From a virus (lineage: Duplodnaviria; Caudoviricetes), in IMG/VR virus record IMGVR_UViG_3300031867_000034, positions 15,798-79,797 of that record: 64,000 bases of DNA. The stretch is one strand, 5' to 3'. Below the pieces are notes generated by a model that searched no databases, was not told the DNA's origin, and saw only the letters and a program-made list of their open reading frames with translations. Made by a program: the position numbers and the translations under genes. This document shows positions 7,021 through 64,000 of this stretch, in pieces. How positions within the stretch are numbered: position 1 is the first letter of the stretch; each line of letters starts with the position of its first letter.

Positions 7021-7078
7021 TAGCTGATATTTCATTAAATCCATGTTATTATTCATGGTACAAAGGAGGGATAATTAC

Positions 7079-7342
7079 ATGGATGAAAAGATGATACCTT
7101 ATATTGCATTTGAGAGTGCCACATCAAGGCAAGAGAGAACCATTAAGCGGCTATGGATATTGTGTTTGGTGCTGATAATAGCACTTCTTGGCACTAATGC
7201 CGGATGGATTTTCTATGAATCACAATGGCAAGTAGTAGAAACAACCACAGTTACACAAGATTTAGATGCGAGTGATGGCGGCGATGCTGTTATAAATGAT
7301 GGGGTGCATATAAATGGCGAGAGCGAGGCAAACAGTAACTAA
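7079..7342 (+). CDS. Single-TM hypothetical protein
   Basis: AGGAGG RBS. Hydrophobic stretch LWILCLVLIIALLG. Confidence 0.6.
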   Translation: MDEKMIPYIAFESATSRQERTIKRLWILCLVLIIALLGTNAGWIFYESQWQVVETTTVTQDLDASDGGDAVINDGVHINGESEANSN

Positions 7343-7448
7343 GAGCAAATCAAGGCAAAAGAAAACCGGCGGCAATTCCGGATATATTCAATGTAACATG
7401 TGTAAAGGTAGCGGAAGAATCCGAAATTGGCATAAGAACAAAAAATGA
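7314..7448 (+). CDS. 44-aa basic protein with a CxxCxGxG motif (not in ORF track)
   Basis: Translates MARARQTVTKSKSRQKKTGGNSGYIQCNMCKGSGRIRNWHKNKK*. Stop overlaps the next ATG. Confidence 0.55.
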   Translation: MARARQTVTKSKSRQKKTGGNSGYIQCNMCKGSGRIRNWHKNKK

Positions 7449-7660
7449 TTGAGTATAGCAATTCAGAGATAACCAGGATAATCAATGAATATATCCATAA
7501 TGAGCGCAACCGGAAATTGCTTTTAAGGCGTTATGTGGATGGCGTAACTTTGGAGAGATTAGCGGAAGAATTTGATTTATCGGTTAGGCAAGCAAAGAAT
7601 ATAATATACAACAATGAAGATGTGATATTTAAGCATCTAGGTAAAGGAAAAGAGCAATGA
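7445..7660 (+). CDS. Sigma-70 region-4-like HTH DNA-binding protein
   Basis: RKLLLRRYVDGVTLERLAEEFDLSVRQAKNII matches the region-4 HTH pattern. Confidence 0.7.
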   Translation: MIEYSNSEITRIINEYIHNERNRKLLLRRYVDGVTLERLAEEFDLSVRQAKNIIYNNEDVIFKHLGKGKEQ

Positions 7661-7791
7661 GTGATAAGCCCATTGCTCTTTTTTGCGTATTTCTATGATT
7701 TATTTGGAGTGTTGTGGGGATATGGAAGGGGGATTCCATAAACTTATATTTATTATATCATAAAATTCTCTTTTGTTAAGTAGTCAATAAT

Positions 7792-7817
7792 TGCCCATTT
7801 ATTTCCTTTTATGGGCA
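7792..7817. promoter_or_regulatory. Operator-like inverted repeat TGCCCAT-N12-ATGGGCA upstream of the accessory cassette
   Basis: Perfect 7-bp inverted repeat 25 bp upstream of ATG 7842. Confidence 0.35.
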
Positions 7818-11428: not shown

Positions 11429-11451
11429 ATTTAAAAATACATCAAATAATA

Positions 11452-11492
11452 GTTGACAATCCTATAAAAATAGTTTATATTATAATCAACAA
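11452..11492 (+). promoter_or_regulatory. Sigma-70/SigA early promoter (copy 1)
   Basis: TTGACA-17-TATATT. Near-identical to 17210-17250. Confidence 0.75.
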
Positions 11493-11513
11493 ATGATTTA
11501 GGAGGGCAACAAG

Positions 11514-16643: not shown

Positions 16644-17207
16644 ATGCAAAGAGAAGAGATTGCAAGTGTGCTTAATGTAATCCGTGATACATATGATGTG
16701 AACTTTACGGAACTAACCATGGAAGTTTGGTTTAATGCTCTAAAAGAATTTGATTTTGAGGATGTAAAAAAGGCAACCTTCCAATATATCCGCACCGGAA
16801 AGTTTAAGCCAAAACCGGCAGATATTATAGAGTTGATTGTTGAGAATAAAGCCCCACAGATGCCGGAAGAAATGAGCGCACAAGAGGCATGGTCTTTAGT
16901 ATATAAGGCAATATGCAATAGTGCATATAATTCCATCCAAGAGTATGAGAAGTTGCCGGAAATGGCAAAAAAAGCCATTGGAAGTGCTGATAATCTAAGG
17001 AGCCATGCAATTGATGCGGATTTCAATATGGGTGTGGCACAAAGCCAATTTATAAAGGCGTACAACACTTTATTGGAGCGCAAGAAAAATGATTATGCCA
17101 TGAGGCTTGAAGCTGTTAAGCGTGGTGATTTGTCTATTGAGCAATTAACCCAGGGTGTTATTGAGAAAATGGAAAATAAATTATTGTTAGAAGAAAATAT
17201 AAAATAA
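16644..17207 (+). CDS. Loader/inhibitor of G40P-like helicase loader
   Basis: M.REEI..VL..IR..Y…W…L.EF.FE.VKKA…GKFKPKPADI…AQEAW..V.KAI. Confidence 0.7.
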   Translation: MQREEIASVLNVIRDTYDVNFTELTMEVWFNALKEFDFEDVKKATFQYIRTGKFKPKPADIIELIVENKAPQMPEEMSAQEAWSLVYKAICNSAYNSIQEYEKLPEMAKKAIGSADNLRSHAIDADFNMGVAQSQFIKAYNTLLERKKNDYAMRLEAVKRGDLSIEQLTQGVIEKMENKLLLEENIK

Positions 17208-17209
17208 GT

Positions 17210-17250
17210 GTTGACAATCCTATAAATAAAGTTTATTATAATATCAACAA
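17210..17250 (+). promoter_or_regulatory. Sigma-70/SigA promoter (copy 2)
   Basis: GTTGACAATCCTATAAA…AGTTTA…TTATAAT…CAACAA, a paralog of 11452-11492. Confidence 0.75.
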
Positions 17251-17272
17251 GTAATTTATAGGAGGTATAAAC

Positions 17273-19320: not shown

Positions 19321-19941
19321 ATGGGAATGACAAGAGAACAGATATTAGAGATTCTTGAAAACTATAAATTGCGCATACCGCCAACAGTTTTCTATGAATT
19401 AAAGGCAGATATTGTGAATTTTGAAGAGCCAACTACTAAGAATAATTTAGCGGTTGATTGTATGTCAAGCAAGATTGCAAAAGAAATGAATCTTGAAGTT
19501 GCAAACATGAAGAAAATTGTGCAAGCCTTATCCTCAGTAACGTCAACAAATAGAGAGTGCGTTGATTGTATATCAAGGGCAGATGCTTTGCGTGTGGCTA
19601 AAAATGAATATTTAAGAGGTTGGCATAATGCACTTTGCAAGGCATTGAGTGAAAAATATTCAATTCATTGTGAAGAAGGCAATTTTAGCGTAATACAAGA
19701 AGAAACTATAACAGGGTTAGGACTATCAATGAATTGTGCATTAGGTAAAGATGCTGAAAGCTATATGAGCACTATGCCCTCAGTAACACCACAAGAGCCA
19801 AAGACAAGGCATTGGATAAAAATCAAACCATATCCTTTACAGATGCACAACTACGAATGTAGTGAGTGTGGTCATGAAACAGATGATAATACAGAAAACT
19901 ATTGTAGCGAATGCGGGGCAAAAATGGAAAGCGAGGGATAA
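19321..19941 (+). CDS. Mosaic nin-region protein with C-terminal Zn ribbon
   Basis: EPTTKN, VDCISRADA and PSVTPQEP blocks shared with 61728-62189. C-terminal CSECG…YCSECGAKM. Confidence 0.65.
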   Translation: MGMTREQILEILENYKLRIPPTVFYELKADIVNFEEPTTKNNLAVDCMSSKIAKEMNLEVANMKKIVQALSSVTSTNRECVDCISRADALRVAKNEYLRGWHNALCKALSEKYSIHCEEGNFSVIQEETITGLGLSMNCALGKDAESYMSTMPSVTPQEPKTRHWIKIKPYPLQMHNYECSECGHETDDNTENYCSECGAKMESEG

Positions 19942-19943
19942 AT

Positions 19944-21264
19944 ATGGCAACATATGAAATCACAGCAGAATTGAATCTGAAAAAGATTATTGCAGAATCA
20001 AGGGAAGTTGCACAAGCCTTAAATGAGTTTGCGGATAATCTTGAACGGATTGAAAAGAAGTATGCAAAGCCACAGGAAAGTGAGGCAGACAATGGGAATA
20101 ACAATCAACATAACTGAGGGCATCAACGACTATGAATTTTATAATGTGCCGAAAAAAGTAGCAAAAGCAATAATTACACTTCTACATGAGTGTGAGAAGG
20201 AAGATAGCACTATTGTTTCAGCTATCAGTGAGAGGTAGAAGATGAAAATGACGATTGAAGAAAGTCTTGAATGGCTTATATCAAGAAAAGAACACTATGA
20301 AATGGATGATAATTGTCAAGAATTAGCGAAAGCCTTAGATATAGCTATAGATACCATGCGTAAGTATCAGAAGATAAGAGAAATAGCTTTTCCATTACAG
20401 TTTTGTTCAACAGACAAACTTGAGCATGAAGCTATTATGAAAATATGTGAGGTATTAGAAGATGGGAATAGTAATTGCACATAGGCGTTGTCCTAAATGT
20501 GGTTGTAAATGTTTTAGAAATATGAATAGGTGTTGGCATTGTGGATATAAGTTTAGACGAGGGGAATGAAAGATGGGAATGTCGATTGAGAAAGCAATAG
20601 AGATAATAAACCATTATTTAGATTATCCCAAAGAAGAAGTAAGAAAAGCCTTATTAGTAGCAATAGAAATCATGCGCAAGTATCAGAAGATAGTCGATAT
20701 AGTTTCCTTGAATGATGAAGAATTTAAACAATGTGGGTTAAAGGAATTAAAGGAAATATTGGAGGTTATAGCTGATGGTAGGAATTAAAAACTTTGTAAT
20801 GCCATATAATTGCTATGATTGTGACCTACACAATTATCATGAGTGTGATTTTACAGGAGAGTCAATAGAAGAGGATTATTGTTGGAACGGAGATAGCAGA
20901 GAAAAGCATTGTCCTCTTAGAGAAGTAGAAGCAATTCCAAAAGACCAATACGAAGCAAGATTAAAGGCTGATATGGTGGCTATGCTTACAGAGTTACAGT
21001 TGGAGATTGAGGAATTAGATACACCGAATAATGGTAGTGCCTATATGGATTGTTCAGAGATTATCCAACAGAAAATAGACAGTTTGAAAGGGGCAGACAA
21101 TGACAGTAAAAGATCTTAAAGAGCAGTTAAACAATTATCCTGATAATTTGGAAGTAATACTCACAAATGATGATGTTTTTCTGCCAGGGTTATACAAGGC
21201 AACCGAAACAAGGCAAGAAGACGGATATTTGTATATTGATACGGATTTTGAAGAGAGGATTTAA
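19944..21264 (+). other. Run of small nin-like genes (19944-20117, 20092-20238, 20242-20484, 20462-20569, 20573-20788, 20775-21119, 21100-21264)
   Basis: Overlapping, translationally coupled ORFs. 20462-20569 (35-aa Zn ribbon) and 21100-21264 were read manually. Confidence 0.6.
20092..20218 (+). repeat. Perfect direct repeat, copy 1 (identical to 63874-64000)
   Basis: 127 bp identical, starting exactly at the ATG of a 48-aa ORF. Upstream flanks differ. Confidence 0.95.
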
Positions 21265-41481: not shown

Positions 41482-42585
41482 ATGGCTTTAGGAACAGCGT
41501 ATATGACCGCAGATGGTGGAGGTAGTTCTAGTAAAAAGAAATTTGATATTGATGTATCAGGGATTAGAAACACTTTAACAAACCCTTCAAAGAGACTTCA
41601 ACTTCAGACTCAGATGGATCTTCAGGGCTTTAATGGTGGATCTGGAAGTTACCCAGGGGCAAGTGGTTCAAGTTTATCTGGTTCAAGTGGTCGCTCTGGT
41701 GGTTCAGGTGGTTCAAGTTCAGGTGGTTCAGATTCTTATTCTGCTGAGTCTTATTCTGCGCCGGCTTTTGATTGGGCTGCTTATTATGCGGAGCTTCAGA
41801 GACAGGCACAGGAAAGAGCTAATGCAGCATATGAGCGTAATATGGAAAGAATAGCAAGTGCTTATAATTCTGCTTATGGTAGCCTTTCAGGAAATTATGA
41901 TTCTACTGTTAATAGATTGAATGCTGCAAGAGATAAATCTATGAGTGATGTTAACGCAGATGCAGAAAACTCACTCAGAGAAGCATATATCAACAATATG
42001 CTTTCAAAGAAAAACCTTAATCAGAGACTTTCTGCTATGGGTTATAATGGCGGTGCTACAGAGTCTACAATGGCTAGTCTTAATAATAACTATGGCAATT
42101 CAAGAACAGGCATAAATCAGACACTTAATGATAATATTGCTAACCTTGATGCTACATATGGTGATAATCTTGCTTCAGCACTTCAGAGCTTCAATTCTGC
42201 TAAGGCTAATCTTGATCTTCAGAGAATGCAACTTGAAATGCAAGCTGAAAATGCTAGACAGAACGCAGAAGCAAGCTCAATGTCAGGTGCTATGAGTATT
42301 GATGGTTCTTATATGTCAGCGCTTCAGGCGGCACTTGCTAATCAGAGCAATTATACATACAACCAGTCACAGGCAACTAATGACTTCGTTGCTGGACAGG
42401 CTCAACAGGCCGCTAGTGCTTCAGAAGGTGCAAATTACTCTAAGTACTTAGCACAGGCACAGTTACAGGCTTCACAGGGAGCTAATGCAAATACAATTAG
42501 AAACACCTTGTTTAATGCGGTTTCTAATGGTGATCTTGATATCAATTCTCTTTATAACATTCTTGCACAGTTAAGGGCAGCTTAA
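41482..42585 (+). CDS. Probable ejection (internal virion) protein
   Basis: Gly/Ser linker plus long Ala/Gln/Asn helical region. Precedes the giant ORF. Confidence 0.55.
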   Translation: MALGTAYMTADGGGSSSKKKFDIDVSGIRNTLTNPSKRLQLQTQMDLQGFNGGSGSYPGASGSSLSGSSGRSGGSGGSSSGGSDSYSAESYSAPAFDWAAYYAELQRQAQERANAAYERNMERIASAYNSAYGSLSGNYDSTVNRLNAARDKSMSDVNADAENSLREAYINNMLSKKNLNQRLSAMGYNGGATESTMASLNNNYGNSRTGINQTLNDNIANLDATYGDNLASALQSFNSAKANLDLQRMQLEMQAENARQNAEASSMSGAMSIDGSYMSALQAALANQSNYTYNQSQATNDFVAGQAQQAASASEGANYSKYLAQAQLQASQGANANTIRNTLFNAVSNGDLDINSLYNILAQLRAA

Positions 42586-42616
42586 TAGCTGTCCTTTTCT
42601 ATTGGGAGGCTTATAG

Positions 42617-45600
42617 ATGGCTAAACAGTCAATGAAACAGCAGATATATCAATCAATAGCAAATAGTCAGGTACAAAAGGTAATGTCTCAGAAAAGAGAT
42701 CAGGAGATTGCACAGTTACAAGCTGATTATGATGCTTGGGCTAAACAGCAAGCAGAAATACAGCAGTTACAGGCAGATTATGACGCATGGTTAAAAGAGA
42801 ATAATCCTCAGCCTGTTCAGACTCAGCCAGTACAACAGGCTACTGTTAATGAGATTAAACAGCAGATACCTTCTATTGCTGATTATGATAAGACAGCAGA
42901 TAATTTGCAGTACAGACAGGCCAAGAGGAATATCGCATTAAGAGATAAGCAGCGTGAGGACTACCAGCGTCAGCAGCAGATGGAACAGGAACTTGCTGAT
43001 CCAAGATATGCTGAAAAAGAAAAGAAAAAGACAGAATTTAAGCAACTATCTAATCTTGCAGATTATCAGGCTGCTATGGATGCTCAGAAAAAGCAGACTC
43101 AAAACAACTATGATGATTTAGTGTCTACTGTTCAGAATATGGAAAAAGCTGATAAGTGGCTTGATCCGTCCTATAAGTTGTCTAAGGAAGAGGAAAAGGA
43201 AGCTAAGAAGGTTGCTGAGACTGAGCTTGCAAAACTGAAGGGCAGAAGTCTTACAGATGAAGAAAAGGCAAGAAAGCAGACTTTTGAGGACCTTAAGACC
43301 AAGACAAGCAATTTTAGATCTTTTGCTGTTGGTGCTGCTGATAAGGCATTGGATTACGGAAAGTTTATTTTACAGGGTGTGGCTGATACTCAGTCAAGAC
43401 AATTAGCGGCTCAGAATGAAACGGCTCAGGCTATGGGTGTTAATACTGGTTTAACTAATGAAGAGTTAAGCGGTATTGATGAAGAGACAAAAGAAAACAT
43501 TCAGAGGCTAAATGATAGTACTGCTGATATTGTCCAGAATGTTAAGACTCAAAGTCCTAGAGCATATGGTCGCGGTCAAATGTCTACACAGCTTGCAGCA
43601 TACATGCTTACTAATCCGGCTTTTGATTCTTTGGGTACTGCTGTAAATGCTGGTAGAATAGGTTCTTTTGCTGCTAATCAGGTCGGACAAAATGCTCAGG
43701 ATCTTGTACTAGAAGAATTACCAATGCTTCAAAAGGCTATGAATGATGGTGATATATCTGAGGAAGAGAGAAATGAGATTTTAAAGACCGCCGGCTATAA
43801 TGCTGTTGGTAATCTTATTCCTGGTATTGCTATGGAAGGTGTTAATAGTGTTATTGCTAAAAGGGCGGCTGATGCTGCGTCCAATGAAGCATTCAGGCAG
43901 AATGTAAAGCAAGGCGCTGATTATCTTGAATACATCAATAAGAATGGTATCACTGGCCTTGAACCAAAGGCTAATGAAATTCCACAGATAGATCCTACCA
44001 CTGCAGCTAATAATGATTTTACTAGGCTGATGAATGAATACAACAATACATTCAAGGATGATTCTGCCATGAGAAATATTTATAGCGAAGAGGATCTTGA
44101 TGGTAGTCTTAACAAGCAACTTTCTGAGGCATTAGCAGATAATTCAAAGGCTTCTGTAAAAAAACCACAAATTGATAATATCAATGCTGCGCTTGATAAG
44201 GTGAATGCTGGAAGAACTACATATATTAAAGATTTTTATGAAGGCCCTAAACCAGTTTCTTTAGGTAATTCAGAACGTATAGAAATAGCTCCTGATACAT
44301 ATAACAGGGCATTGGATATTTACAATAAGGCAAAACAGGATGGCTCCTTTGGTCCTAGGCTCAGGCAGTATGTAAAACAGTTATATGAATCAAAGTATAA
44401 AGATCCGAAATATGGGCGAGTTATTTTAAATAACGTTTCTTTTAATGATGGTGATTATGTTGTTGAAATTGGTCACAGAGCTTTAAAAGAAGCTATTGAT
44501 AAAGGACATTTATCACCAGAGAAAATTGCTACACTTGAAAAACTGGATGATCTTCTAGCAGATAGTGAGTTCATTGATAGCGGTTTACCCAAATATCATG
44601 GAACAACTAATAAGTCACAACTTGTAAGATATGATTATTTTGAAACACCTATAACAATTAATGGAAAGAATTATATAGTTGGATTTGATGTAGAAGTAAA
44701 TAAAGGTGGTAATAGATATAAAACACATAAGGTAGTAAATGAAATAAACCTCATCCCTACTGAGGGACAAGGTTTAACTTCAAATATTACTGAGACCACC
44801 GCATCCAAGGGATTAACGGATGGAATTGGGGTAACACCCGATCGCATAACGGGGATCCCTACTCAGCAGTTAGAAAGATCTCTTTCTAACTCAAACATAG
44901 CAGATGCTATCTCAGAAGTCAATAAAAAATCTGTAAAGAATATTGACATGCCACAAGATGCTCAGGAAAAGATATTATCTGACTTTGAGCAGATTTATAA
45001 CAGCATGGATGATATGAATGCTGCGGCTGAAGCTTCCGGAAACGCTAAGGCAATTGAGAAGTTTGAAAAACTGCAGCAGTCAGTATTTGAGTATGAGGAC
45101 TCTGTCTGGAAGTCTGAAAGTCTGGATGATGTTAATAAAGCTAAGAAAAAAGCGGATGCAGCTAGACAGGCTTTTGTACGTGAAATGCAGAAGACAGATC
45201 CTAACTATAGGGCTAGTCTTACCGGCACTAAGCTTGGCAATGCTGAGTTTAGACGTACTTCAACAGCACCAACAGATAGCGCATTGTTGGATGAAATTGT
45301 TGATGATATGGTTAAACAGGATATGGATAATCCTAATCGTTTTGTTAAAGATGCAAACAAAACCGATATTCCTGTTAATGCTCCTGTTAGCGGTAATGGT
45401 GAACTTGAAATACACACTATACATGGTAGAAATGGTAGAGAGATTTACCAAGTTGTATCAAGGGAAGGAGATTTACTAACTCCGGTTGAGCCTGGAAAGA
45501 CTTTCAACACAAGGGAAGAAGCAGAGAAAGCTATAGATCAGTACAGAACAATGGCTGAGTCTATAAGCAAACCTAAGAGCGACATTATCACATCTGAGCC

Positions 45601-48600
45601 TATCGAGCCAGGAAAGTATGAGATACCAGATACACCGGAGAACGCGCCTAAAGATGTTCCTCCTGTTGATGGTATGAAAGAACGCGGAACATCTAAACAT
45701 ATCCGTAATGATGGCACTCCAATGAGGATGGAAGGCGTATCGGACGAAGTAGTATCAGACTTTAAAGACAATCCAGATATGTATAAGGCGCTTAAAAACT
45801 CTGATACATTATCTAAGGCTGAGAAAATCTATAATGAGAGTTCAGATGCTTTAGTTGACTTTAGAGATATGGTTAGAAACCATGATCCCGCTGCCCTTCC
45901 ATTAGGACACCAACTTGCTAAAGATTATTCTGCTGCCGGAAATCACGAAGCTGCTGCTCAGATTTATAGAGAAATGGGAGAACAGCTTACAAAAGCCGGT
46001 CAATTCTCACAAGCGGCAGCAATTAATATGATGAAGAATGATCCTCTTACCGCAAGAGCCTATTTTGAACGCGAATTAGATGCGTTAAATAAAGCCGGCG
46101 CTGACAAGTATGGTAAGAAGTGGAAAGATTTTGTGTTAACAGATGAAGAGCGAGCATTATTTGACAAAATCGCTCCTGGCGATTCTGAAGCCATTAAAAA
46201 TGCAATAGATAAAATAGGCGTCAGAATTGAGAAAGAATATCCGGCTTCTGCATGGGAAAAGGTCCTTGAATTTAGAAGAGTAGCCATGTTATTTAACACT
46301 AGGACTATTGTTAGAAATACATTGGCTAACCCTCCTACAGCGGCACTGCGATATGTTTCTGATAGGATTGAAGCTCTAGGCCAATATGCAGCACACTTAA
46401 TCGATCCGGACTTTGAGGTTACACAAGCAATTCGCGGAAGTAACCTAGAAACAAGAAAACTTGCAAAGGAGGTATATAATTCCAGCAAAGTTAAATCTTT
46501 GTTAGAAGGCGGAACAGGACGTTTATCTGAGATTCCTTCAGTTGGTGATTATGCCAAGTCGAAGCAGATGTTTAAAGGCGGATTTGTTTCTGACTGGGTT
46601 AACAAAATGACTAATGGTGGCGTTGAAAAGCTTAACGCAAAACTCGGTAAGGAGAACGCAAAGTCTTTACTTGAACTAACTAGAAGTTCTGCTTATAAAG
46701 CCCTTGAAGTTACTGATAACCCAATGGTCCGTGAAAACTTTATATCAAGACTTGGAAGTTACATACGCGCAAAAGGAATAAAAAATGCCGCAGACGTTCC
46801 AGACGAAGCTATATTGATGGCTTACGAAGAAGCAATGAAAGCTACTTATAAAGATAATAGCTTTATGGTTCAGGCTATTCGTAATTTTAAAAGCGGCATA
46901 GAAAGAACTGGAAACCATATTATTCCTGGTTTGGGTGATATGGCAAGTCAGGCTTTGATTCCTTACGTTCAGGCACCGGGAAATATTGCTGCAAGAACAA
47001 TAGACTATAGCGGCATAGGTTTTGGTAAAGGTATCGCCAAGATTGTTAAAGGCGCTTCTGCAAATGATGTAAAGATGATATCTAAAGGCATTGAAGAAGC
47101 TTCTAAGGGAGCAACAGGATCGTTAATGGCAGCGCTTGGATATGCTCTTTATAAATCTGGTGTCATAACAGGTACTTATTCTAATGACAACGATCAAAAA
47201 GCCTTTGAGAAAAAGAATGGATTTAGAGAGTTTGCTTTTAGATATAAGGTAAATGGACAGACAAAATATGACACTATAGACTGGATGCAACCATTTGTTG
47301 ATACAATTATGCCTGGCGTTTTGTTAGCTCAAGCAATAGAAAATTCTGATAAGTACGATTCAGATATTCTAAGATATTTTGGATTTGAAGGAACAAAACT
47401 AGGCAAAGTAACAGGCGTGGCAAAAGAAGGAGTAAAGAAGAATGTCAATTACTTCTTTGATTCAACGCCGCTTAAAAACCTTGGAGAACTGTTTAAAGGC
47501 AATTATGGTAAAGAAACAGATTTAGCTGGTAATTTATGGGAAAATACAGTTGAAGATTTTGCAAGTGCATTAGTCCCAGCCGGAGTAAACGCCGTTACAA
47601 AGTCTGTTGATCCAATACAAAGGCAAACATACGACCCTAGCAATGCGTTTGGAACTTTTGTAAATGGTGTTGCTGCAAAGTTACCTAAAGTATCTGAGGC
47701 TTTGCCAGTTAAGTATGATACCTGGGGGCAGCCAATGACTTATGGCAATAGCAAGGGTGAGGCTGCTTTTGCAAAGATGTTATATCCTGGCGAACACACA
47801 AGTGATAAGGCAGATGAAACAGATAAAGAGCTTAATCGCTTGTTTGAAACAACAGGTAGCAACGCAGTATTCCCTCAAGTCGCCCCAAGTAAAGTAAATG
47901 GTGAGAAAATCAATAATAAAGAAGTCTCTCAGTATCAACAGGACGTAGGTGTTCGTAACAAATTACTGGTAGATGGTTTTATTAATTCCAGTTATTATGA
48001 TGCTTTAGAAGACACAGACAAGGCCGATAAAATCGCTAAATTATATGGTGTTTCAAAAGCTATTACGGAGCGCGATAAGTTTGGCAAGGAAGTGTCTGAA
48101 AATAGCGAATACAAAAAAGCTATTGAAGCATATGATGAAGCTGGTGGTGGAGAAAAGGGTGTAGATGCAGTAATTAACCATTATACAGCTAAAAAAATAA
48201 CAGATGATGCCGGTATAAATGCAAATTCAAAGGTTGCTGAACAGGTCCAAGATGCCGTTGCAAATGGAAATATGCAAGAAGCACAGAAAATAGCAAAGAA
48301 TGAAGGCCAAAAATTAGATATGTATGAGAAATATGGTCTTGATAACAATTCTACTTCTAAAAAGGTTTATGAAGACTATGGAGAAAGTGGATTGAAAGAT
48401 CTTTCAGCTATGAAATCAAAAGGCTTGGGAGCAACAGCAACTTATGTTTATGAAAGCGCCAAAAAAGAAGTGAGTTCTTCCGAATTACCATCTATTGAAA
48501 CTTTTGCTAGTACCTACAAAAAGATTGATAACTATGGTAATTCTAATGGCTCTGTAAATCAAAAAGAATTTCTTGCATATGCTAAGAAAAACAATCTTTC

Positions 48601-48700
48601 AGAAAGCGAAGCACAGAAACAAGCGCAACTATACGGAGATTGGAAACAAATTCCATATTTAAAGAAAGATGGATCCTGGGGATTCCATAAAGCTAAATAA
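42617..48700 (+). CDS. 2,027-aa ejection/polyvalent protein with an LPD3/BECR-like domain at ~44240-44755
   Basis: Largest ORF, at the end of the podoviral late operon. Domain YDYFETPITINGKNYIVGFDVE…YKTHKV resembles polyvalent-protein RelE-fold modules. Confidence 0.65.
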   Translation: MAKQSMKQQIYQSIANSQVQKVMSQKRDQEIAQLQADYDAWAKQQAEIQQLQADYDAWLKENNPQPVQTQPVQQATVNEIKQQIPSIADYDKTADNLQYRQAKRNIALRDKQREDYQRQQQMEQELADPRYAEKEKKKTEFKQLSNLADYQAAMDAQKKQTQNNYDDLVSTVQNMEKADKWLDPSYKLSKEEEKEAKKVAETELAKLKGRSLTDEEKARKQTFEDLKTKTSNFRSFAVGAADKALDYGKFILQGVADTQSRQLAAQNETAQAMGVNTGLTNEELSGIDEETKENIQRLNDSTADIVQNVKTQSPRAYGRGQMSTQLAAYMLTNPAFDSLGTAVNAGRIGSFAANQVGQNAQDLVLEELPMLQKAMNDGDISEEERNEILKTAGYNAVGNLIPGIAMEGVNSVIAKRAADAASNEAFRQNVKQGADYLEYINKNGITGLEPKANEIPQIDPTTAANNDFTRLMNEYNNTFKDDSAMRNIYSEEDLDGSLNKQLSEALADNSKASVKKPQIDNINAALDKVNAGRTTYIKDFYEGPKPVSLGNSERIEIAPDTYNRALDIYNKAKQDGSFGPRLRQYVKQLYESKYKDPKYGRVILNNVSFNDGDYVVEIGHRALKEAIDKGHLSPEKIATLEKLDDLLADSEFIDSGLPKYHGTTNKSQLVRYDYFETPITINGKNYIVGFDVEVNKGGNRYKTHKVVNEINLIPTEGQGLTSNITETTASKGLTDGIGVTPDRITGIPTQQLERSLSNSNIADAISEVNKKSVKNIDMPQDAQEKILSDFEQIYNSMDDMNAAAEASGNAKAIEKFEKLQQSVFEYEDSVWKSESLDDVNKAKKKADAARQAFVREMQKTDPNYRASLTGTKLGNAEFRRTSTAPTDSALLDEIVDDMVKQDMDNPNRFVKDANKTDIPVNAPVSGNGELEIHTIHGRNGREIYQVVSREGDLLTPVEPGKTFNTREEAEKAIDQYRTMAESISKPKSDIITSEPIEPGKYEIPDTPENAPKDVPPVDGMKERGTSKHIRNDGTPMRMEGVSDEVVSDFKDNPDMYKALKNSDTLSKAEKIYNESSDALVDFRDMVRNHDPAALPLGHQLAKDYSAAGNHEAAAQIYREMGEQLTKAGQFSQAAAINMMKNDPLTARAYFERELDALNKAGADKYGKKWKDFVLTDEERALFDKIAPGDSEAIKNAIDKIGVRIEKEYPASAWEKVLEFRRVAMLFNTRTIVRNTLANPPTAALRYVSDRIEALGQYAAHLIDPDFEVTQAIRGSNLETRKLAKEVYNSSKVKSLLEGGTGRLSEIPSVGDYAKSKQMFKGGFVSDWVNKMTNGGVEKLNAKLGKENAKSLLELTRSSAYKALEVTDNPMVRENFISRLGSYIRAKGIKNAADVPDEAILMAYEEAMKATYKDNSFMVQAIRNFKSGIERTGNHIIPGLGDMASQALIPYVQAPGNIAARTIDYSGIGFGKGIAKIVKGASANDVKMISKGIEEASKGATGSLMAALGYALYKSGVITGTYSNDNDQKAFEKKNGFREFAFRYKVNGQTKYDTIDWMQPFVDTIMPGVLLAQAIENSDKYDSDILRYFGFEGTKLGKVTGVAKEGVKKNVNYFFDSTPLKNLGELFKGNYGKETDLAGNLWENTVEDFASALVPAGVNAVTKSVDPIQRQTYDPSNAFGTFVNGVAAKLPKVSEALPVKYDTWGQPMTYGNSKGEAAFAKMLYPGEHTSDKADETDKELNRLFETTGSNAVFPQVAPSKVNGEKINNKEVSQYQQDVGVRNKLLVDGFINSSYYDALEDTDKADKIAKLYGVSKAITERDKFGKEVSENSEYKKAIEAYDEAGGGEKGVDAVINHYTAKKITDDAGINANSKVAEQVQDAVANGNMQEAQKIAKNEGQKLDMYEKYGLDNNSTSKKVYEDYGESGLKDLSAMKSKGLGATATYVYESAKKEVSSSELPSIETFASTYKKIDNYGNSNGSVNQKEFLAYAKKNNLSESEAQKQAQLYGDWKQIPYLKKDGSWGFHKAK

Positions 48701-48748
48701 AACAAAGCCTCTACTCAGAAATGGGTAGGGGCTTATTTTATTGTATTA

Positions 48749-48988
48749 TGCACACAAAAGTGCACATGAAATTTAAAAAAGGCGCTAATCAAGGCACTTC
48801 CAACCTATTTGCTGAAGTGTTCGATTCTCGTCAGCAGCTTTATTATATTAAAGCCGGTAATCAAGGGAAATGTTATTCAAATCCGCTTGGTTACCGGCTT
48901 TTTTAGTTCTATTTATTGAAGCTGATTTTTTGATTTTAGAAGTGATTTTTAATAAAAAATGCACACAAGTGCACACGAAAGTGCACAC
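48749..48988. other. attP: core GTTCGATTCTCGTCAGCAGCT (48819-48839, tRNA 3' end-like) with (G)TGCACAC arm-site repeats
   Basis: Core equals T-loop + T-stem 3' arm + acceptor 3' arm + discriminator. Arm repeats at 48749, 48760, 48960, 48969 and 48981. Adjacent to the integrase 3' end. Confidence 0.75.
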
Positions 48989-48994
48989 GTTTTT

Positions 48995-50062
48995 TTATGC
49001 TTTCTTTTTCTTGTATTGTTCCTTGAAAGTATCTTCAATGTAGTTATTGGCTATCTGAGTATATTTCTTTCTATTAGAAGTAAGAGTATTGTCGTAAACC
49101 CTTTTCAATACAGTAGATTCATTCTTCCATCCACCGACTTCTTCAACATATTTCTGTGGTATTCCTATATCAGTTCTGAAACTTGCAGCATAATGTCTGA
49201 GACTGTGGAAGGAACATTTTAATCCTAATTTGTCTCTTAAGTGTTGGAAGTTGCTAGTGATCTGATTAGGATTAAGTCCAAAAACATAGCTTTCAGGATC
49301 TTCAGAAACAGGAAAAGTATCTATTATGAATTTTGGTAATTGCACACATCTGTTACTACCTGAAGTTTTGGGAAAATCCTTGTAAATAAAGCCTTCGTCA
49401 GTCTGTACAACATCAGCGTGAACATAAACAGTGCACATGTCCCTGGATATATCTTTTTGTTTGAGTGCTGCTATTTCTCCACGCCTTAAGCTACCAAAAG
49501 CGGCTACGCCGATAACGGGCTTCATTATATCGCTTGCGTTGTCCAGAAGCATTTTTACATCATCAACATCCGGTGAGACAACATTTGCTGGTTTAGGTTG
49601 GGGATATCTGAGCTTGAATTTTTTATCACATCCGGCATAATCCAAAGCTGACAATAAGAATGATATCCTTGTTTGTATTGTCTTCTTAGTTATAGATATG
49701 CTCCATTCGTTAATGATTGGCTGTATATCGGACGTTTTTATGTCATATACAGAAATATATGATATGGATTCAAAAAGCGGTAAAAAACGCTTATAATCGT
49801 ATATCGTACGTGGTGAAAGAACCTTCTCTCTGTCTTTAATATAAAGCTTTAAAGCATTCTCAACAGTATAATTATTTTCTTCATCTTCTGCATTTAAAGT
49901 CCACTCTCTAGCTTTTAATTCAGATAGATCTCTGGCTTTTCTCCAATCATTACCACATTCTTTTGGATGTACAGTAAAAGACTTCCGGATCAGTTTCCCA
50001 TTTATCTTTTTGTTGGCTTGTGTTCGCCATGCTCCGCTTGGGAGTTTGATTGCTTTTGCCAT
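48995..50062 (-). CDS. int: Tyrosine integrase
   Basis: SLRRGEIAAL, FHSLRHYAAS, GGW…RVY catalytic residues. Confidence 0.93.
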   Translation of the reverse strand: MAKAIKLPSGAWRTQANKKINGKLIRKSFTVHPKECGNDWRKARDLSELKAREWTLNAEDEENNYTVENALKLYIKDREKVLSPRTIYDYKRFLPLFESISYISVYDIKTSDIQPIINEWSISITKKTIQTRISFLLSALDYAGCDKKFKLRYPQPKPANVVSPDVDDVKMLLDNASDIMKPVIGVAAFGSLRRGEIAALKQKDISRDMCTVYVHADVVQTDEGFIYKDFPKTSGSNRCVQLPKFIIDTFPVSEDPESYVFGLNPNQITSNFQHLRDKLGLKCSFHSLRHYAASFRTDIGIPQKYVEEVGGWKNESTVLKRVYDNTLTSNRKKYTQIANNYIEDTFKEQYKKKKA

Positions 50063-50078
50063 AATAGCACCTTTCTGA

Positions 50079-50522
50079 TTATGAACTCATTATATTTAAC
50101 AACATATCAATGTTTGTGGCAAAATCATTTATAATGCCTGCTTCGTAGCGATTAAGATATTCCTGGCACTCTGCTACAATCTGCTTCTCGTTCTTATCAA
50201 TGATGGCTTTTATTAAAGATGCGTAAACGTTATTTTCTGTATGAAAAGGATGAAGCCATTCTCTCTTTACAGGAAACATTTTTAGATAATGCAATCCGTG
50301 GCGATTGTAGTCTTTGGTTGTAGATCTTGGTGGTAATGGAAAATACTGATTCTTTGGAGCACTCTTTGAAATATTTGAGCGAAGGGGAATAGCGAAATCA
50401 TATCTTGAGCCCTTATATTTCAATCTGATAACCAGTGCTGAAGGCCTATCTGCCTTTTGAAGCATTTCAGGATCTTTGGAATATCCTTTCAATGCAGTCT
50501 TATCTATAGTTATTAGTCGCAT
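50079..50522 (-). CDS. ToxN/AbiQ/TenpN-like type III toxin (endoRNase)
   Basis: PEML.K..RP…FAIPLRSNI…GLHYLKMFPV pattern. Upstream terminator and pseudoknot RNA. Confidence 0.7.
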   Translation of the reverse strand: MRLITIDKTALKGYSKDPEMLQKADRPSALVIRLKYKGSRYDFAIPLRSNISKSAPKNQYFPLPPRSTTKDYNRHGLHYLKMFPVKREWLHPFHTENNVYASLIKAIIDKNEKQIVAECQEYLNRYEAGIINDFATNIDMLLNIMSS

Positions 50523-61731: not shown

Positions 61732-62189
61732 ATAGAGAAGAAGCAATTTATTTTGCAAACTGCCTTAAAAATAACTATACCGTTGATCTTAATGATATGG
61801 AAGCGTTTTGTGATATGGCGATCAAGGCACTTGAGCAAGAGCCAACTACTAAGAATGATTTAGGAGTTGATTGTATATCAAGAGCAGATGCAATTCAGGC
61901 TATGCAAGATACAGCCAAGAAGCTAACAAATGAAGATACAATAAACGGCTTATGCGGAGCAGTAGCAATATTGTTTGATTTTCCCTCAGTAACACCACAA
62001 GAGCCAAGAAAAGGCGAATGGCTTAGAATGTCTGATTTATCAGAACAAGAGGACGATAGATATAAATGTTCTCGTTGTGGGAATGTTGTACATCATAAGA
62101 ACAAAATAGATTTATATACTTTCAATAGTTGGTGTGGAAGATGCGGAAGTGATAATGGTATACATATACATTGTGAGGTAGAAGAATGA
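61728..62189 (+). CDS. Mosaic nin-region protein with Zn ribbon
   Basis: Shares DNA blocks with 19321-19941. Confidence 0.65.
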   Translation: MNREEAIYFANCLKNNYTVDLNDMEAFCDMAIKALEQEPTTKNDLGVDCISRADAIQAMQDTAKKLTNEDTINGLCGAVAILFDFPSVTPQEPRKGEWLRMSDLSEQEDDRYKCSRCGNVVHHKNKIDLYTFNSWCGRCGSDNGIHIHCEVEE

Positions 62190-63714: not shown

Positions 63715-63899
63715 GCAAATATTCTGTTGAAGATACAGACAATCCAAAACTCAAAGTGCTTATAGAGGAAATGGCATATCTTGAATGGATTAACAGAGCT
63801 TTAAAACAACAGGTACAGATAAATGAGAATAGGCTTGCAGAAATTGATAAAGAGCTAGTTAAGGAGCAGGAAGATGGGAATAACAATCAACATAACTGA
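63711..63899 (+). CDS. Hypothetical coiled-coil protein
   Basis: ORF track. Its 3' end overlaps the repeat. Confidence 0.5.
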   Translation: MSKYSVEDTDNPKLKVLIEEMAYLEWINRALKQQVQINENRLAEIDKELVKEQEDGNNNQHN

Positions 63900-64000
63900 G
63901 GGCATCAACGACTATGAATTTTATAATGTGCCGAAAAAAGTAGCAAAAGCAATAATTACACTTCTACATGAGTGTGAGAAGGAAGATAGCACTATTGTTT
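63874..64000 (+). repeat. Perfect direct repeat, copy 2 (truncated by window end)
   Basis: Identical to 20092-20218. Confidence 0.95.

Follow-up and report, generated by a model that had tools for sequence, protein, structure and literature searches.

A putative cis-antisense RNA gene embedded in a linker that follows LPD3 in a giant virion protein of a phage

Why should a virion protein gene carry, within its own reading frame, what looks like a promoter facing the other way? The question is raised by a stretch of 64,000 nucleotides (nt), here called the window, which makes up the right 64 kb of the 79.8-kb IMG/VR virus record IMGVR_UViG_3300031867_000034. According to the list of open reading frames (ORFs) and its translation, the plus strand of the window encodes at 42617-48700 a giant virion protein of polyvalent or ejection type, 2027 amino acids (aa) long. 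Its sole Pfam domain is LPD3, and behind this domain lies a linker whose minus strand reads as a promoter followed by a folded RNA. An earlier note on this DNA had seen there an injected toxin with its RNA partner. Here, I argue from sequence comparison that the linker is probably a self-contained gene for a cis-antisense regulatory RNA, which would restrain the LPD3-bearing gene.

Promoter and folded RNA in the linker

Direct reading and a scan agree on the promoter in the window: on the minus strand, a -35 box TTGACT (44917-44922; TTGACA in most relatives) is separated by 17 bp from an extended -10 element, TGC followed by TATGTT (44894-44902, TATGTT itself at 44899-44894). These boxes, including the TG just upstream of the -10 hexamer, are as first described. 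The promoter resembles those read by a housekeeping sigma factor and has no recognisable control site, which does not bear out the suggestion that only lysogens would transcribe it. As a bare pattern it is unremarkable, 37 such sites being present in 12 kb against 40.1 expected by chance; conviction comes from comparison.

A protein search returned 143 relatives of the giant protein. The DNA of 11 of them was retrieved, and L018, the one true relative found by a scan with the promoter pattern, was added. All 12 carriers of the linker motif display on the minus strand TTGACA (TTGACT in the window and in L018), a 17-bp spacer and TAnnnT, mostly with TGn before it, despite a protein identity of 30-60% among giant-gene relatives. 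Within the 6-kb gene, the pattern TTGAC[AT]-17-TAnnnT occurs at this site only in 9/11 cases, and nowhere in the two genes having TATATC as -10 box. The linker peptide S-x-N-I-A-D-x-I-x-N-V-N-K is conserved as well; codon usage shows, however, that conservation of the promoter exceeds coding needs. The V-N-K codons under the -35 box are invariably GTC-AAT-AAA in 10 close relatives; the valine codon is GTC in 12/12, while GTC accounts for only 4-17% of the valine codons in these genes; and synonymous-codon identity at identical amino acids peaks at 0.82 over the promoter, as against 0.53 overall. Considering all loci, the 17-bp spacing and TAnnnT are retained over at least 14 different spacer sequences.

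The predicted transcript begins at about 44887, as judged from promoter geometry. Its 5' end is a hairpin, P1 (44869-44892, minus strand; helix 1, 88% of cells paired), the same 10-bp hairpin that had been noticed before, at coordinates one base off (44868-91). RNAalifold and pair counts then define a central domain (44789-44867, minus strand), in which the P2 stem (CUGAG/CUCAG, covarying to UUGAG/CUCAA) encloses the arms P3-P4 and P5-P6; helices 2-6 are 87-97% paired, with compensatory double changes at 14 pairs. P7, recovered by a terminator scan, is a terminator-like 14-bp hairpin (44745-44776, minus strand; helix 7, 94% paired) and precedes a U-rich tail, UUUCAUUUAC (44735-44744, minus strand). 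With this tail, which the VVNE codons closing LPD3 encode, the RNA is predicted to end after about 150 nt. This hairpin and tail were missing from the features listed earlier; promoter, folded stretch and terminator together form a complete unit of about 150 nt.

On the minus strand, 44735-44893 reaches a folding energy of -59.6 kcal/mol (z -6.7), on the plus strand one of -55.0 kcal/mol (z -6.4), with 0/200 shuffles as good, and in a sliding scan no other part of the 6-kb gene shows strong structure. Neither the window nor the genome contains a second copy of the element. Six elements (from the window and L002-L006) were aligned from promoter to tail (alignment A1), and RNAalifold finds in them 7 helices and 49 pairs, 18 of which show compensatory double changes. 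Of the A1 cells, 91.8% pair, compared with 82% in shuffles (0/500 reach the observed value; the sequences within each alignment are related, and shuffle counts are not probabilities) and 40-50% in controls with slid partners. The inner pairs of P7 are wholly different from one relative to another, and the peptide encoded over the inner stem varies with it (IPTEG, VPVTE, TPITDGA, EPLNKA and others); on this ground the RNA, rather than the protein, is judged to be the stronger constraint in this stretch. In L007/L008, L009, L018, L023 and L024 the promoter is kept in front of unrelated bodies of 64-125 nt, whose two ends pair with each other, the 3' partner directly preceding the U-tail. At least 5 or 6 unrelated bodies are placed for transcription behind the conserved promoter, and equivalents of the hairpin and U-tail are present in all lineages. 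The nested antisense promoter and structured RNA of the earlier note are, in other words, conserved features.

Since both strands fold, the question is which of them matters. The consensus energy of A1 is -49.9 kcal/mol on the minus strand vs -31.1 on the plus strand (mean single-sequence energies -62.8 vs -53.2); for A6, an alignment of nine distant LPD3 loci introduced below, it is -32.5 vs -21.2, every sequence taken singly having its better fold on the minus strand. G.U cells exceed A.C cells 33:5 in A1 and 17:5 in A6, and all these statistics are biased toward the minus strand, on which the structure was predicted. In P7, two G.U pairs of the minus strand correspond to C.A mismatches on the plus strand. 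Moreover, the hairpin is followed by a U-tail on the minus strand only, no T-run being found after it on the plus strand, and sense transcription would therefore not be terminated. Given the consensus energies, the G.U counts and the minus-only hairpin and tail, the functional molecule is most likely a transcript of the minus strand.

Several simpler identities for the element were considered and rejected. A known RNA family is rejected, as Rfam 15 gave no covariance-model match at an expectation value (E) up to 1 for window positions 42000-50000 and nine related loci. A small protein on the minus strand is rejected too, no conserved small ORF or ribosome-binding site being present there, and L007 having no ORF of 12 codons or more. 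A mobile palindromic insert, like a miniature inverted-repeat transposable element (MITE) or a Rickettsia palindromic element (RPE), flanked by a 9-bp target duplication (ATCCCTACT, present twice), does not hold either: the element is single-copy and the repeat is absent from homologues. As for the finer folding proposed at the outset, the stem CATCC (44802-06)/GGATG (44818-22), the AGGGAT at 44808-13 and the ATCCCT sites at 44753 and 44855 are all present. The alternative pseudoknots drawn from them are not supported, for the AGGGAT/ATCCCT complementarity and the ATCCCTACT repeat are peculiar to the window, absent from homologues and not conserved in A1. A covariance model of the element (R1) matched only its six training loci, and the type-1 terminator pattern gave only chance matches in GTDB genomes and JGI metagenomes.

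Coupling to LPD3 and proposed action

Is the RNA linked to the domain in front of it, or just to this family of giant genes? An alignment of LPD3 (A3) was used to retrieve 19 further IMG/VR loci, with 31-38% identity and a GC content of 42-64%, of which 18 were informative. In 18/18, the minus strand carries TTGACN, 16-18 bp and TAnnnT about 95-140 nt behind the domain, the range being about 95-200 nt when the giant-gene relatives are counted in. TTGAC[A/C/T] with a 17-bp spacer was found in each further LPD3 locus checked, and only 7 such patterns exist elsewhere in roughly 61 kb. The check suggested in the earlier note, antisense -35 and -10 boxes behind LPD3 along with reduced synonymous variation, was positive at all LPD3 loci open to examination.

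Over the promoter boxes the peptide, NVNK in the linker motif, varies in these loci (NVNG, NVKN, EVNT, GVKG, DVNA). Their predicted transcripts are long imperfect hairpins, whose 3' arm and U-tail (GGUCCAUUUUUA and similar) are also the codons for the last strand of LPD3. The alignment of nine such loci (A6) has 24 pairs, 14 of them compensatory, and is 88% paired vs 72% in shuffles (0/500 reach). A case in point is provided by L056 and L057, where the ORF with LPD3 ends at 2079, leaving the promoter, which runs from 2112 to 2084, in intergenic DNA; coding constraint therefore cannot explain its conservation there. The module takes its simplest form in these two loci (L057 454-2112; also L056): a stand-alone 541-aa protein ending in LPD3, in the layout expected of a convergent, 3'-overlapping antisense RNA. 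The terminator hairpin of the window corresponds to the base of the simple hairpin, P1-P6 being additions, and the RNA of the window is, as far as comparison can tell, an enlarged member of a family of putative antisense RNAs accompanying LPD3 in many phage lineages. Because distant LPD3 relatives keep the same arrangement, the domain and the RNA look like one functional unit.

From these features I infer both the production of the RNA and its action, which might proceed as follows. The RNA would be made constitutively by the host RNA polymerase and would base-pair with the sense mRNA where the segment coding for LPD3 comes to its 3' edge. Pairing would probably begin loop-to-loop, because the mRNA folds into mirror-image hairpins. 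Through duplex cleavage, translation block or polymerase collision, the output of the LPD3-bearing protein would be lowered when late transcription is weak, namely in lysogens, early after entry, or upon leaky read-through. OOP of phage lambda works on cII in this way, as do SR4 and RatA of Bacillus on the toxin mRNAs that they overlap at the 3' end; with STnc6030 of the prophage BTP1, they are the closest precedents.

Some points weigh against this reading, in addition to the cautions already attached to the shuffle counts and the strand statistics. The promoter of the window scores only 9/12, and in L004 and L006 the -10 box is TATATC, ending in C. Some relatives with a different linker lack the promoter motif (P0009, P0011, P0012, P0015, P0017, P0020, P0077), so the protein can do without it. 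The promoter in turn occurs without an LPD3 domain in four lineages, i.e. L005, L007/L008, L009 (where it follows MuF_C) and L018; taken together, these two sets of exceptions indicate that the link to LPD3 is strong, not absolute. Finally, this reading does not account for how an antisense RNA of 150 nt could be of use against a 6-kb late gene during lytic growth.

Nature of LPD3 and rival explanations

Which activity might need such restraint? If a dedicated antisense RNA is there, expression of LPD3 must be held down, which would point to a harmful activity. In the window, LPD3 with its conserved last strand HKVVNE spans 44360-44743 (plus strand), the Pfam match to PF18798 covering aa 582-701 (nt 44360-44719; E 8e-9, 36.1 bits for the whole protein and 42.9 for the domain alone, cut-off 27). 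Across 15 LPD3 sequences a K, the motifs R-Y-D-Y-F-E-T-P and D-V-E-V, and an N, a Y and an H are invariant, which suggests an enzyme. Two LPD3 models obtained with AlphaFold (predicted local distance difference test scores 81.6 and 81.9) show helices packed against a long twisted sheet. In an exhaustive VIA-align comparison the top rows are the toxins CdiA-CT (7m5f_C, Z 5.1, root mean square deviation 3.2, 86 aligned; 6cp9_A, Z 4.5) and BrnT (Z 4.3), with RelE, colicin D, XendoU and ParE next, all of them weak matches in a range where, by the aligner's own caution, a Z under 8 may mean only a common arrangement. A model of the LPD3 core returned the same rank order, with Z at most 3.9. Foldseek gave no match against the PDB beyond NTF2-like noise and, against viral models, other LPD3 domains only; a PDB sequence search had no match below E 0.35; and Pfam, searched up to E 10, reported PF18798 only and no PBECR family. 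An Atlas feature score of 0.84-0.85 to PBECR3 clusters is a lead only, and two proteins, P0111 and P0112, have both LPD3 and PBECR domains.

The earlier note had taken the RNase nature of the domain as established. Iyer et al. 2017 (PMC5512222) list LPD3 among domains of elusive function, outside the potentially enzymatic LPDs, and assign the BECR RNases of polyvalent proteins to separate PBECR families (PMC5512222). The fold searches do rank BECR toxins first, yet weakly (Z 5.1 and 3.9); that LPD3 may be an RNase is plausible, with weak support.

The view that LPD3 is an injected BECR-like RNase and the overprinted linker RNA its dedicated antidote, a toxin/RNA-antitoxin module in a single virion-polyprotein frame, is a possibility, if a rather unlikely one. 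Were it true, the linker peptide would be merely a shadow cast by the promoter and by the reverse-complemented last strand of the domain, and the exchange of cassettes among polyvalent proteins would move toxin and antidote together. That the RNA does its work on the protein itself, by binding and neutralising it in the manner of type III systems or by serving as decoy or guide, I regard as unlikely. Such a role would agree with the presence of the RNA beside LPD3 in distant lineages and stand-alone LPD3 genes, with an RNA body exchanged together with the cassette and a promoter that remains joined to the downstream module, with the CdiA-CT, BrnT, RelE and colicin D toxins as top fold matches, and with the invariant K, R, D, E, Y and H residues. 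Those fold matches are weak, however (Z at most 5.1), Pfam finds no PBECR family, and the promoter also stands behind MuF_C and unknown domains. Tandem repeats of the type III antitoxin kind are lacking: in ToxIN-like systems the antitoxin is a repeat array upstream of the toxin and read from the same strand, whereas here a single, repeat-free copy follows the domain on the other strand. Furthermore, RNA sequence and shape (type 1 vs simple hairpin) diverge between lineages having similar LPD3 domains, and pairing with its own template therefore fits better than recognition by a conserved protein surface. The layout of the RNA would be no less suited to antisense regulation of the ordinary kind, aimed at the sense mRNA, than to a protein-binding antidote or guide.

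Alternatively, the RNA might be an immunity determinant by which a resident prophage destroys the giant-gene mRNA of incoming relatives, as STnc6030 does, the different body types being so many specificities. Superinfection exclusion of this sort would make sense in a temperate phage with an integrase, an M78 peptidase, a helix-turn-helix (HTH) repressor and an antirepressor next to the gene, as well as with a conserved promoter driving at least 5 or 6 unrelated bodies, and it has a precedent in an RNA antisense to an injection gene (STnc6030, PMC7067206). It seems quite unlikely nonetheless: the same layout is found behind stand-alone LPD3 genes that do not obviously concern phage exclusion, and the RNA is tied to one domain and not to any essential late gene. 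One could also deny the antisense transcript altogether, letting the hairpins act in the sense mRNA (ribosome pausing, processing) or in the DNA, as a recombination site for cassettes, with the boxes as by-product of a linker peptide such as a protease site. The good folding of the plus strand (z -6.4), the clustering of mosaic homology breakpoints at the linker and the conserved S-x-N-I-A-D-x-I-x-N-V-N-K peptide speak for this; all comparisons nevertheless favour the minus strand, to which the U-tail is confined, and the hexamers with their 17-bp spacing outlast complete turnover of spacer and peptide and persist outside ORFs. Explanations of this kind fit the evidence poorly and are very unlikely. 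A small RNA acting in trans on host or other phage genes, housed by chance in a tolerant linker, is hardly to be expected. The putative RNA does have its own promoter, structure and terminator, and prophage small RNAs acting in trans are known (PMC12197685), but a trans target would require a conserved seed, whereas only the fold and the position relative to LPD3 are kept between lineages; no search for targets was made. A cis-antisense RNA restraining its host gene is thus the reading adopted here.

Phage context and kinship with known antisense RNAs

In the window, terminase, portal, capsid, tail and endolysin genes lie upstream of the giant gene, and an integrase, an M78 (ImmA/IrrE-like) peptidase, an HTH repressor and an antirepressor downstream, on account of which the phage is regarded as temperate. 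The contigs of the relatives measure 41-45 kb and have the same gene order. Neither the DNA nor the proteins matched any phage in INPHARED; an initial protein scan of IMG/VR and a protein-alignment scan of GTDB genomes found no match, and no PHROGs entry matched the giant protein. The only named host lead comes from a relative without the promoter motif (L022), which resides as a prophage in Butyrivibrio sp. AE2032 and whose giant gene adjoins host DNA.

The giant protein is a mosaic: in the window and in L002-L009 and L022-L024, a conserved N-terminus of about 450 aa is followed by a cassette slot, the linker with the RNA gene, and conserved modules. Relatives exchange in this slot LPD3, MuF_C (aa 568-659 of P0008) or unknown domains, and homology breakpoints of different pairs fall within the linker (aa ~708-776). 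The conserved promoter can accordingly be seen as the fixed right-hand border of a slot in which LPD3, MuF_C and other domains are exchanged. L002 and L007, for instance, are 92% identical downstream of the linker and 53% upstream, and the switch occurs within a few bases of the predicted RNA start. In L006, a gene for a 259-aa protein of the PemK toxin family (7029-7808, minus strand) takes the place of the integrase directly after the giant gene.

The record itself deserves a comment. An exact repeat of 127 nt is found at 20092-20218 and at 63874-64000, the second copy being at the very end of the record, and the 43,782 bp between the copies amount to one full temperate-phage genome. Given this spacing and the 41-45 kb of the related contigs, the 79.8-kb record may have arisen through a join made in assembly, 127 being a word size that assemblers often use, or it may represent two phages as a co-integrate. 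In addition, 19424-19823 has diverged counterparts (79-91%) at 61837-62029. The intergenic stretch 48600-49000, which separates the giant gene from the integrase, has very strong structure on either strand (z as low as -7.7), and a 13-bp terminator stands at 48705-48734; the phage attachment site attP is probably located in 48600-49000, as the giant gene of L022 adjoins host DNA. A 68-nt intergenic block is repeated, with 79% identity, at 11433-11500 and 17191-17258. Both copies contain TTGACA, about 17 bp and TATATT/TATAAT, and probably serve this phage as true early promoters, their -35 box being that of the embedded promoter. Between the integrase and the M78 peptidase, a 147-aa ORF (50079-50522, minus strand) has no Pfam match.

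If the reading is right, a full RNA gene can occupy a protein linker and dictate its amino acids, and such embedded genes are overlooked by gene finders and by RNA-motif searches restricted to intergenic DNA. LPD3 is widespread in polyvalent proteins of phages and conjugative elements. Should the RNA turn out to be an antidote or an immunity determinant, temperate phages would have a new way of carrying dangerous injected effectors safely.

How does the locus compare with what is known? The OOP RNA of phage lambda acts in an RNase III-dependent manner. It is a 77-nt antisense RNA, transcribed from the promoter pO against the 3' part of cII (PMC7067206, PMC12197685). Like OOP, the RNA described here would be a short countertranscript from a temperate phage that has a constitutive promoter, stops at a terminator and is complementary to a coding segment at its 3' end. 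Most of OOP is located outside the cII ORF, in the immunity region, whereas here the entire gene with its promoter is overprinted in frame on a protein linker within a late virion gene; the predicted RNA is also twice as long, has seven helices and is coupled to a protein domain in many lineages. In Bacillus subtilis, the type I pairs txpA/RatA, bsrG/SR4 and yonT/SR6 consist of convergent RNAs overlapping at their 3' ends, SR4 and RatA acting on toxin mRNAs. The likeness is close, in that a convergent antisense RNA covers the 3' end of its partner's coding sequence in prophage DNA of Firmicutes, which is exactly the layout of L056/L057, and in the window the terminator arm and U-tail coincide with the last LPD3 codons. 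The Bacillus toxins, however, are small hydrophobic membrane peptides, while LPD3, about 125-175 aa long, forms a soluble alpha/beta domain within a protein of 2027 aa, or of 541 aa in L057.

STnc6030 of the Salmonella prophage BTP1 is antisense to a DNA-injection gene and has an experimentally shown exclusion function (PMC7067206). It differs in being 786 nt long, spanning two genes, having no reported conserved fold or family and belonging to a P22-like phage of a Gram-negative host, and the function proposed here is predicted from sequence; the likeness is that of a prophage RNA antisense to a DNA-injection gene of the late region, STnc6030 being expressed in lysogens and acting by base pairing (PMC7067206). 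As to the protein, the partner domain in the window is a bona fide LPD3 (PF18798) in a giant polyvalent-type phage protein; the paper describing PBECR domains and LPD3 (PMC5512222) mentions no RNA partner, and no PBECR model matches here. Literature searches found no published description of a pairing between LPD3 and an antisense RNA. The antisense countertranscript is in itself known in kind; what is unusual is that it is wholly overprinted in frame on a protein linker and coupled to one domain across lineages.

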